From Patescibacteria group bacterium (GTDB taxonomy: Bacteria; Patescibacteriota; Patescibacteriia; 2-12-FULL-60-25), in the NCBI GenBank assembly GCA_023229665.1, contig JALNYW010000002.1:92988-156987 (forward strand): 64,000 bases of DNA, read 5' to 3'. Below are positions 27,205 through 28,566 of this stretch, in pieces. A program made the position numbers and the translations under genes. The notes below the pieces were generated by a model. The model ran no database searches, was not told the origin of the DNA, and saw only the letters and a list, made by a program, of their open reading frames with translations. Every line of letters begins with the position of its first letter. Position 1 is the first letter of the stretch.

Positions 27205-28566
27205 GTGACGACATACAAAAAGGCGGGACTGACCGCCGAACAGTACAAGATCGCGGACGTATTCCCTGGTCTTCTCGACCTGGACCGGCCACAGGCGAAG
27301 CTCATGTACAAGGATGAGCACTCGCTCTTCCGTGGCGAAGCCAAGCGTAAGCGCCGCCAGGAGCGCCATCTGAATAGCTTCTTCCGTCGCCGTCAGCTGC
27401 TCGACTACTCGCCGGGCGTGCTGCGTGACAATGAGCTCGTGCATTTCCACGACTTCTACGTCGGCCGTTTGCGCGATGTCTCGCGTCGCAGCTTCCCGAT
27501 GTACGGGAAGGGCACGTACGAGCAGAACGAAGATCGCTTCCGTCGTTCGGTAGCGGACGTCGAGAGCGTATACGCGTATTTGCGTAAGCTCGCACCGGAA
27601 GAGGTGCTTGTCGGACGCCGTTATGTCCGCATCCATGAGCATTTGAAGCTCGTGGATGACGTGCGCACTGAAGACCCGCTGGAGCTGCTTCGTCTCGCAA
27701 AGCTCCGCGATCGCATGGTCAGCCACCAGGCACGTTGCCGGCTCATTCTCGCGCAGACCTGTTTCAGCGCGCGGATGGATGGCTATGCGCCGGATGAGCT
27801 GCGCACGTACGAAGAGGATTTGCGCGGGGCCATGGACCGAGCCTTCTTCGCCGATCCGGAGGGCGAGCCCGTCCACATCGTGGCCGAGCTTGATCCGAAC
27901 GATCACTACGTCTGCAAGCGCCACCACGTGGTGGAAGTGGGACAGCCGGTGCCGGAGCCGCGTGACGACTTGTTCGTTATGCAGGTGTATCGCCGTGCGG
28001 TGCCGCGCCGCCGCAAGCCGGGCGCACCGCCCATCCACATCTACTTCTTCTTGCGTCACAAGCAGCGCATGCTCCTGAAGCAGCTCGACAAGGGCATCAT
28101 CTTCCCGCAGACCGTGGGCATCGGCGATTCCGTCGCCATGATGTTCGTGGTCGAGCGCGAGGACCTGAGCAAGCTCGTGTCCGAGGTTCAGGAAGTGGTG
28201 GTGCCGAATCCGGGTATGGTGGCGGACCTCAACTCCTCCATCGGGCATCGGTTGGGGAGCGAGCGTCTCGATCCCCGAAACCGGCGTTCGAGCAAGCTCT
28301 ACGAAGCCATGAAGTACGGGGCGCGCATCGAAGACCGCATGGTCGAGGTGCAGTTCCTACCCATGGCGGCGTGGATCAATTCGCTCGCCGCACGTTCCGA
28401 CGTGAATCACGCCTGGTACAAGATGAAGCGCTATGCCGCGAGTGCCTACCCGACGCTCTTTCCCGAAACCTGGTCCGGCATTCCGTGGCGCTCGCGGGCG
28501 TTGCAGAATCGCTGCATCGCGCACTCCATCAGCCACCTGAGTGAGCCGAAAATCCTGAGACCCTGA
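27205..28566 (+). CDS. hypothetical protein with C-terminal RelA/SpoT-like nucleotidyltransferase motifs (453 aa)
   Basis: GTG start after TAGGGAGG. The C-terminal ~150 aa carry RHKQRMLLKQLDKG, IGDSVAMMFVVE, KLYEAMKY, MVEVQF and HAWYKMKRY, in the same order as the RSH synthetase motifs (RxKS..K / DxxGxR / YxxxH / ExQ / HxxYK). The N-terminal ~280 aa are unrecognised. Confidence 0.6.
   Translation: MTTYKKAGLTAEQYKIADVFPGLLDLDRPQAKLMYKDEHSLFRGEAKRKRRQERHLNSFFRRRQLLDYSPGVLRDNELVHFHDFYVGRLRDVSRRSFPMYGKGTYEQNEDRFRRSVADVESVYAYLRKLAPEEVLVGRRYVRIHEHLKLVDDVRTEDPLELLRLAKLRDRMVSHQARCRLILAQTCFSARMDGYAPDELRTYEEDLRGAMDRAFFADPEGEPVHIVAELDPNDHYVCKRHHVVEVGQPVPEPRDDLFVMQVYRRAVPRRRKPGAPPIHIYFFLRHKQRMLLKQLDKGIIFPQTVGIGDSVAMMFVVEREDLSKLVSEVQEVVVPNPGMVADLNSSIGHRLGSERLDPRNRRSSKLYEAMKYGARIEDRMVEVQFLPMAAWINSLAARSDVNHAWYKMKRYAASAYPTLFPETWSGIPWRSRALQNRCIAHSISHLSEPKILRP

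Follow-up and report, generated by a model that had tools for sequence, protein, structure and literature searches.

What is the product of the unannotated open reading frame (ORF) 27205-28566 on the plus strand of the window analysed here, a stretch of 64,000 nucleotides (contig JALNYW010000002.1, positions 92,988 to 156,987), and which role could it play in a cell that already possesses a Rel enzyme? The window belongs to a 1.34-Mb genome (29 contigs, 95% complete) of an ultra-small groundwater bacterium of the Candidatus Uhrbacteria, Patescibacteria, and a sequence identical to the ORF was also found in groundwater metagenomes. An original prediction, made from the sequence only, had described the ORF as an ORFan in which a divergent RelA/SpoT-type (RSH) nucleotidyltransferase is fused to an unrecognisable N-terminal region. 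The ORF and all motif strings on which this description was based are present at the respective places, namely RHKQRMLLKQLDKG at residues 284-297, IGDSVAMMFVVE at 306-317, KLYEAMKY at 364-371, MVEVQF at 379-384 and HAWYKMKRY at 402-410. The proposed architecture was supported by profile, profile-profile and fold evidence. The gene encodes a 453-residue member of a very divergent, previously unannotated RSH subfamily, which has a novel N-terminal domain and is restricted to Patescibacteria.

The C-terminal third of the protein (residues ~276-430; 28030..28494, plus strand) is an RSH synthetase-like domain. This assignment is supported by four independent lines of evidence that converge: a profile search, a profile-profile alignment, the fold of the structural model and residue conservation. 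A hidden Markov model (HMM) of 55 family sequences was run against all PDB sequences and retrieved RelSeq (1vj7) first with an E-value of 0.0033, Rel of the M. tuberculosis type (5xnx) second and RelA fifth. In the resulting alignments, RvKe..illKl is paired with RPKHiySIYRKM and igDliglkfvve with IFDLIAIRCVME. The PF04607 HMM did not match the window protein even at E<=1, and in the family it gave sub-threshold matches to six of the 55 members (best E-value 0.037). Hence, the similarity to RSH profiles that had been anticipated was not seen with PF04607 and the window protein, but emerged with the family profile and in the profile-profile comparison. For the latter, the C-terminal part of the family was aligned by HHalign with 29 canonical Rel synthetase domains from Patescibacteria genomes, yielding a probability of 94.6% and an E-value of 6.5e-8 over 114 columns, with all five synthetase motifs (Syn1 to Syn5) in register. 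Reversed and column-shuffled templates (one and eight, respectively), which served as controls, reached scores of 10-17, compared to 58 for the real alignment. The parallel to the order of the RSH motifs is therefore beyond chance.

The third line of evidence came from structure prediction. AlphaFold2 supplied with the 55-sequence alignment produced a model with a predicted local distance difference test (pLDDT) score of 93.9 and a predicted template modelling (pTM) score of 0.91; a run with the 14 close homologues alone failed (pLDDT 49.6). When the model was compared to the PDB by Foldseek, ranks 1 to 20 were all occupied by RSH proteins, with probabilities of up to 1.00, among them RelSeq, SpoT, SAS1/RelQ and Rel of B. 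subtilis, an exported small alarmone synthetase (SAS) of Streptomyces and FaRel2. Among the viral models of BFVD, the top match was a phage 'RelA/SpoT family protein' (E-value 3.7e-3), and Tas1 was also listed. The model is confident and its matches are uniform, while the E-values and template modelling (TM) scores obtained with the full-length query are modest. It is thus consistent with an RSH synthetase fold but does not prove it.

Residue conservation was determined in an alignment of 55 diverse family members, in which the columns given below are represented by 52-55 sequences. The Syn1-like motif R284-x-K286-x5-K292 (28054..28080; this and the following motifs on the plus strand), which is aligned to GRxKhxySlyKK of Rel and predicted to bind the ATP phosphates, retains its basic residues almost without exception (R284 51/53, K286 53/53, K292 53/53), while the Ser of RxKxxxSxxxK is lost. 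In the Syn2-like motif IGD308SVAMMFVVE (28120..28155), aligned to DLxAvR of Rel, the predicted Mg2+-binding D308 on strand 310-316 is invariant (53/53). The window protein has Ala and Met at the positions of Gly and Arg in DxxGxR, but across the family the third position after the Asp is G in 29 and G or A in 51 of 53 sequences, 22 of the 53 have K or R at the fifth, and a sister clade encoded next to rel mostly keeps the canonical DxxGxR. The Syn4-like motif M-V-E381-V-Q383-F (28339..28356), aligned to EiQIRT of Rel, contains the predicted catalytic E381 (55/55) and Q383 (49/55), followed by L385-P386 in place of the Arg-Thr of ExQxRT. The Syn5-like motif H402-A-W-Y405-K406 (28408..28422), aligned to HWxYk, is similarly well preserved (H402 53/55, Y405 54/55, K406 49/55). 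Together, R284, K286, K292, D308, E381, Q383, H402, Y405 and K406 are 89-100% conserved and are among the most conserved columns of the family, which suggests that the catalytic set is under selection.

The Syn3 region, which corresponds to the acceptor loop, has been rewritten to N359-R-R-S362-S363-K-L-Y366-E-A-M-K370-Y (28279..28317). According to HHalign, Y366 and K370 correspond to the Tyr and the His of GYxSxH. The canonical motif itself is not present, as Gly is replaced by Leu, Ser by Ala and His by K370, and a new NxxSS precedes the Tyr. The altered loop is a property of the family (N359 53/54, S362 48/54, S363 46/54, Y/F366 50/55, K370 51/55). Thus, of the non-canonical substitutions noted originally, the Lys in place of His was confirmed, while the missing Gly and Arg after the Asp are limited to the subclade of the window protein. 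Outside the part aligned to RSH proteins, a family-specific C-terminal motif, (Y/F)P416-x-L-F-P420-x4-G-x-P-W428 (28450..28488), was identified (P416 53/55, P420 55/55, W428 50/52).

The N-terminal 275 residues (27205..28029, plus strand) constitute a lineage-specific domain. In the AlphaFold model, this domain is helical up to residue ~213 and continues with three extra beta strands at 221-266, with pLDDT values >90 throughout. In searches of Pfam and the PDB, this part did not show any sequence or profile similarity. No match to HD_4, TGS or ACT was found in the protein, as the original prediction had stated. Since H39, H82-D83 and D157 are invariant in the 14 close homologues, a degenerate HD hydrolase was considered for this domain. 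However, these residues are not conserved in the family-wide alignment, and hhalign gave a probability of 0.1% for the N-terminal profile compared to the N-terminal regions of Rel, which contain the HD hydrolase. This candidate was rejected as not shown, and due to the lack of a family-wide H..HD..D signature the domain is not called a hydrolase.

The designation as an ORFan turned out to be wrong in the strict sense. The window protein has 14 full-length homologues with 52-82% identity, and when 1.84 billion representative proteins were searched exhaustively, 51 clusters at 50% identity were obtained, extending down to ~20% identity. None of the homologues or clusters carries an annotation; one of the 14 is deposited at NCBI as 'hypothetical protein [Candidatus Uhrbacteria bacterium]'. 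A repeat of the word-based homologue search with a profile added nothing, searches of Pfam, NCBIfam, PADLOC, PHROGs and PDB sequences with the single protein gave no match, and the profile of the 14 close homologues did not retrieve anything meaningful from the databases. A description of the family was not found in the literature search either. Of 61 relatives, 17 carry the gene; in the class as a whole it was detected in 32 of 301 genomes, with only a handful of occurrences elsewhere in the phylum. A canonical RSH gene was detected in 59 of the 61 relatives and in the window's own genome, from which it follows that the RSH-like gene is an extra and not a replacement. The true Rel of this genome (HD + SYNTH + TGS-like, 512 residues) is encoded on contig C21, away from the window contig, in the arrangement dprA-topA-(unknown ORF)-rel-parB-parA. 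Most likely, the RSH-like gene has been inherited vertically and serves as a dispensable accessory to the bifunctional canonical Rel that the same genome encodes.

Additional indications came from the gene context, which was examined in 33 family loci. The nucleoside diphosphate kinase (NDK) gene ndk is present in 21 of them; it lies upstream on the same strand in 18 and within ~400 nt upstream in 14, and this linkage extends to members of only ~25% identity. In the window, ndk is located at 25253..25852 (plus strand; PF00334, E-value 3.7e-40) and has its own promoter and terminator. In this genus it is separated from the RSH-like gene by mntH (25900-27159; PF01566), and the block of the window's family reads rnc-nusB-rpmF on the minus strand followed by ndk-(mntH)-gene. 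Another family of the class shows the order comEC-ndk-gene-FecR/Big_2 protein-CHASE2 cyclase. On a maximum-likelihood tree, a sister clade of seven members split off (SH-aLRT support 93; loci L057 and L065-L070, e.g. L057:5765-8653). All seven members are encoded upstream of the canonical rel (HD_4 + RelA_SpoT + TGS) on the same strand, at a distance of 47-91 nt or overlapping, in the order topA-gene-rel-parB-parA. Three genomes (G184, G246 and G317) contain the ndk-linked and the rel-linked paralogue together. The clades of the tree track the gene context, which fits vertical descent. Both the ndk and the rel context suggest a role in nucleotide-pool or alarmone metabolism rather than in toxin-antitoxin systems or defence.

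It is plausible, though unproven, that the family originated by duplication of rel, because the sister clade precedes rel and keeps DxxGxR and because tandem rel duplicates occur in the class. In three genomes, two PF04607 matches of a tandem canonical rel lie ~1.4 kb apart (G261:C9:8192-9984, G296:C3:568307-570062 and G385:C2:253316-255074), and such a tandem duplication is a possible route to the divergent family. A remnant of the family was not found in the topA-rel gap of the window's own genome. This gap contains an opposite-strand ORF encoding a low-complexity protein of 397 residues rich in Ala, Glu and Pro (L075:5976-7169, on contig C21 of this genome, G000), which has no family match.

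Among the known systems, the long RSH proteins Rel, RelA and SpoT (RelSeq 1vj7/24io, SpoT 7qpr, B. subtilis Rel 6yxa) gave the best sequence-profile, profile-profile and fold matches. They share with the window protein the five Syn motifs in the same order, including the Lys and Arg residues for ATP, the Asp, Glu-x-Gln and HxxYK, and it is directly upstream of a long RSH gene, rel, that the sister clade is found. On the other hand, the window protein lacks HD hydrolase, TGS, AH/ZFD and ACT/RRM domains, is not recognised by PF04607, begins with 275 residues unlike an HD domain and differs by its rewritten acceptor loop, the missing Arg-Thr of ExQxRT and the extra C-terminal P-x3-P...W motif. 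RelQ/SAS1 (5dec, 5ded, 5f2v) and the exported Streptomyces SAS (8vx3) align over nearly their whole chain to the C-terminal domain (157-189 columns, TM-scores of 0.34-0.40 on the target, 13-17% identity). Like the window protein, they are stand-alone synthetases without a hydrolase that occur in addition to a long Rel. However, the window protein is twice as large due to its novel N-terminal domain, and a conserved ndk or rel context is not known for SAS.

Based on these data, we favour, with a probability of roughly two in three, that the protein is an active RSH-type 3'-pyrophosphokinase which acts in nucleotide or alarmone metabolism beside NDK in this clade, or beside Rel in the sister clade, and is controlled by its N-terminal part. 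Homology, residue conservation and the two gene contexts were demonstrated here; the mechanism is drawn by analogy with RelSeq, RelQ and RelP, and catalysis, product and N-terminal regulation alike are inferred. R284, K286 and K292 would hold the phosphates of ATP, D308 and E381, together with Q383, would bind Mg2+ and activate the 3'-OH of the acceptor, and Y366 would stack against the base of the acceptor. ATP would then donate its beta,gamma-pyrophosphate to the 3'-OH of a purine nucleotide, yielding AMP and a messenger resembling (p)ppGpp or (p)ppApp. The acceptor loop reads NxxSSxxYxxxK in place of PKxNGYxSxH, and ExQ is not followed by Arg-Thr, so that GDP or GTP may not be the acceptor. 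The novel domain of 275 residues is presumed to regulate the enzyme. The protein looks like a cytoplasmic, two-domain resident signalling enzyme rather than a toxin.

Several observations weigh against an active pyrophosphokinase of this kind. In the window protein, DxxGxR has lost its Gly and Arg, GYxSxH its His and ExQxRT its Arg-Thr, so that the chemistry or the substrate could differ. No curated model recognises it. The Foldseek E-values are weak (best PDB value 0.018; 0.004-0.3 in the fold lists) and the TM-scores on the target reach only 0.3-0.4, the query being the whole two-domain model of 453 residues. The gene is missing from three of the six genomes of the same genus, the window's own counted, and from ~90% of the class. 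Moreover, ndk and the RSH-like gene are not co-transcribed in this genus, because ndk is provided with a separate terminator and mntH lies between the two.

A more far-reaching version of the favoured reading is possible but clearly less probable. It regards the family as a hitherto undescribed deep RSH branch that originated within Patescibacteria, perhaps when rel was duplicated in tandem, that split into rel-coupled and ndk-coupled lines, and that forms a second alarmone circuit in minimal genomes. The rewritten acceptor pocket together with a private N-terminal sensor would then give rise to a non-canonical 3'-pyrophosphorylated nucleotide messenger, for which NDK would feed the substrate pool and whose degradation might be accomplished by the hydrolase of Rel.

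Alternatively, the protein might have an RSH-like fold but a different chemistry, in that it transfers a nucleotidyl or a single phosphoryl group (similar to adenylylation or to a kinase) to a small molecule, a protein or RNA without producing any alarmone. Such an activity could account for the rewritten acceptor loop, for the missing Arg-Thr in ExQxRT and the missing His in GYxSxH as well as for the strong conservation of N359, S362, S363, P416, P420 and W428 outside the RSH core, and nucleotidyltransferases of the Pol-beta type do appear low in the fold lists. This explanation is nevertheless improbable: the RSH-specific R284, K286 and K292 and the arrangement of a single Asp plus Glu have been kept, there is no DxD triad as in Pol-beta nucleotidyltransferases, every fold match of high probability is a pyrophosphokinase, and the rel and ndk contexts fit alarmone or nucleotide metabolism. 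Still less probable is a catalytically silent pseudo-enzyme which binds ATP or an alarmone and acts as a regulator of Rel, of NDK or of some other partner. In its favour, pseudo-domains of the RelA type are frequent in the RSH superfamily, the window protein departs from the consensus in Syn2 and Syn3, and the sister clade is encoded directly ahead of rel. The invariance of D308 (53/53) and E381 (55/55) over a range of about 20-80% identity would, however, be unusual for a dead enzyme.

The original prediction had raised the possibility of a toxic SAS or a tRNA-pyrophosphorylating toxin, with a neighbouring antitoxin to be looked for. A toxin similar to toxic SAS (toxSAS), or a defence protein of the CapRel, FaRel2 or PhRel2 type in which toxin and antitoxin are fused, would pyrophosphorylate the 3'-CCA ends of tRNA or flood the cell with (pp)pApp, and the N-terminal domain or the downstream non-coding RNA (ncRNA) described below would hold the enzyme off until phage attack. 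The gene is indeed a stand-alone, additional RSH-like gene in a genome bearing Rel, its spread is patchy (17/61 relatives, 32/301 genomes of the class), the catalytic domain is basic with an isoelectric point of about 10, FaRel2 is found among the fold matches, and the hydrolase of the Rel adjoining the sister clade could serve as an antitoxin similar to small alarmone hydrolases (SAH). The similarity to toxSAS (FaRel, FaRel2 8pu4, PhRel2, CapRel) and to the (pp)pApp synthetase Tas1 comprises the RSH fold, with FaRel2 and a phage Tas1 among the matches, divergent acceptor sites and the basic catalytic domain. However, a recurrent small partner ORF, as expected for a neighbouring antitoxin, was not found in the 33 loci, the ncRNA is uncoupled from the gene, and there is neither a secretion or delivery domain nor an immunity partner nor the context of a defence island. 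The gene has a fixed place in a housekeeping block across many families, the clades of the tree track this context, and PADLOC and PHROG did not reveal any match. No integrase or other mobile-element family stood out among the recurrent clusters of neighbouring genes, to which annotation was confined. Furthermore, the additional domain is N-terminal, unlike the C-terminal antitoxin domain of CapRel. A toxin is thus unlikely, and the data do not support this suggestion.

The ncRNA had been proposed as an orphan RNA that might act as antitoxin. It is real: a structured RNA of 195 nt lies at 28620-28814 on the plus strand, within the interval 28586-28814. It has a promoter of its own, a closing stem and a U-run. 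In three other genomes, the RSH-like gene is likewise closely followed by a sequence 69-80% identical to the ncRNA. Among the four sequences, 13 of the 56 predicted pairs show compensatory changes. Contigs of 86-161 nt from two metatranscriptomes of sediment and one RNA-Seq run of wastewater cover the ncRNA only. With a covariance model, a single copy was detected in each of 28 genomes among the 37 of the same family. Of these 28 genomes, 14 do not possess the RSH-like gene, and in genomes without this gene the ncRNA directly follows ndk or ndk-mntH. In a genome of the same genus (G001), for instance, ndk is followed by the ncRNA after a gap of 44 nt. Since the ncRNA is a single-copy element that is located after ndk in genomes without the enzyme, it is a housekeeping RNA syntenic with ndk and not a partner of the enzyme, and its role as an antitoxin was rejected. 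Between ndk and the ncRNA, the RSH-like gene is thus optional. Rfam gave no match to the ncRNA, and a scan of the genome with the Rfam models for the signal recognition particle (SRP) RNA and 6S RNA was also negative; the ncRNA may be the divergent SRP or 6S RNA of this lineage.

The RSH-like gene (27205..28566, plus strand), which belongs to the ndk-linked clade, begins with a GTG codon at a position common to the close homologues. A Shine-Dalgarno-like GGGAGG (27195..27200, plus strand) is situated 4 nt ahead of this start. The end of mntH and the start of the gene are 45 nt apart, and a promoter scan of this gap gave no match. A hairpin with a T-run resembling an intrinsic terminator (28557..28579, plus strand) overlaps the stop codon. 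A competing minus-strand ORF for 352 residues (27190-28248) was rejected, as it has no family match and the conserved plus-strand protein accounts for the region. The GC content at third codon positions (GC3) amounts to 0.79, compared to 0.67-0.74 in the upstream neighbours. A genomic island at tRNA-Phe was considered with regard to this somewhat higher value but rejected, since the synteny in other genera argues for vertical inheritance. The tRNA-Phe gene, to whose block the RSH-like gene had been assigned, is 3 kb away and shows no link to it. The segment between the ncRNA and tRNA-Phe (28863-31511) harbours a gene for an NHL-like lipoprotein (minus strand, GC content 0.67) and an AIR-synthase-related gene (GC content 0.65, GC3 0.90). 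No homologue of either gene of this pair of high GC content was found in the same-genus loci L014 and L015, so that the pair may be a recent insertion.

Some further observations were made on the neighbouring genes. The product of ndk in the window consists of 199 residues and is matched by the Pfam model in two stretches, which suggests an insertion of ~40-50 residues compared to typical NDK; the enzymes of more distant relatives comprise 152-155 residues. The arrangement comEC-ndk-gene-FecR/DUF5667/Big_2 protein-CHASE2 adenylate/guanylate cyclase was found at L025:2350-10188 as well as in L056, L059, L063 and L071, and at these loci the cyclase is a second nucleotide-signalling enzyme adjoining the RSH-like gene. 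In one subclade (L019:8690-9478, L020, L021, L023 and L072), genes for a nucleotide-processing LOG/SLOG protein (PF03641) and an HU-like protein lie a few genes downstream.

Stress signalling in bacteria is centred on RSH enzymes, whose catalogue, comprising long RSH, SAS, SAH and toxSAS, was built with HMMs that are blind to the new family, and candidate-phyla lineages are not mentioned in the RSH census paper of 2020. If the favoured reading is true, this hidden RSH branch, which combines intact catalytic residues with a novel regulatory domain and an altered acceptor site, would extend the known sequence space of pyrophosphokinases and would be a candidate for the source of a new nucleotide messenger. 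The ndk and rel contexts lead to concrete hypotheses on substrate supply and product turnover. The family would thereby offer a testable entry into the signalling of uncultured, genome-reduced Patescibacteria, and its relevance for alarmone biology and the physiology of the candidate phyla can be regarded as moderate to high.

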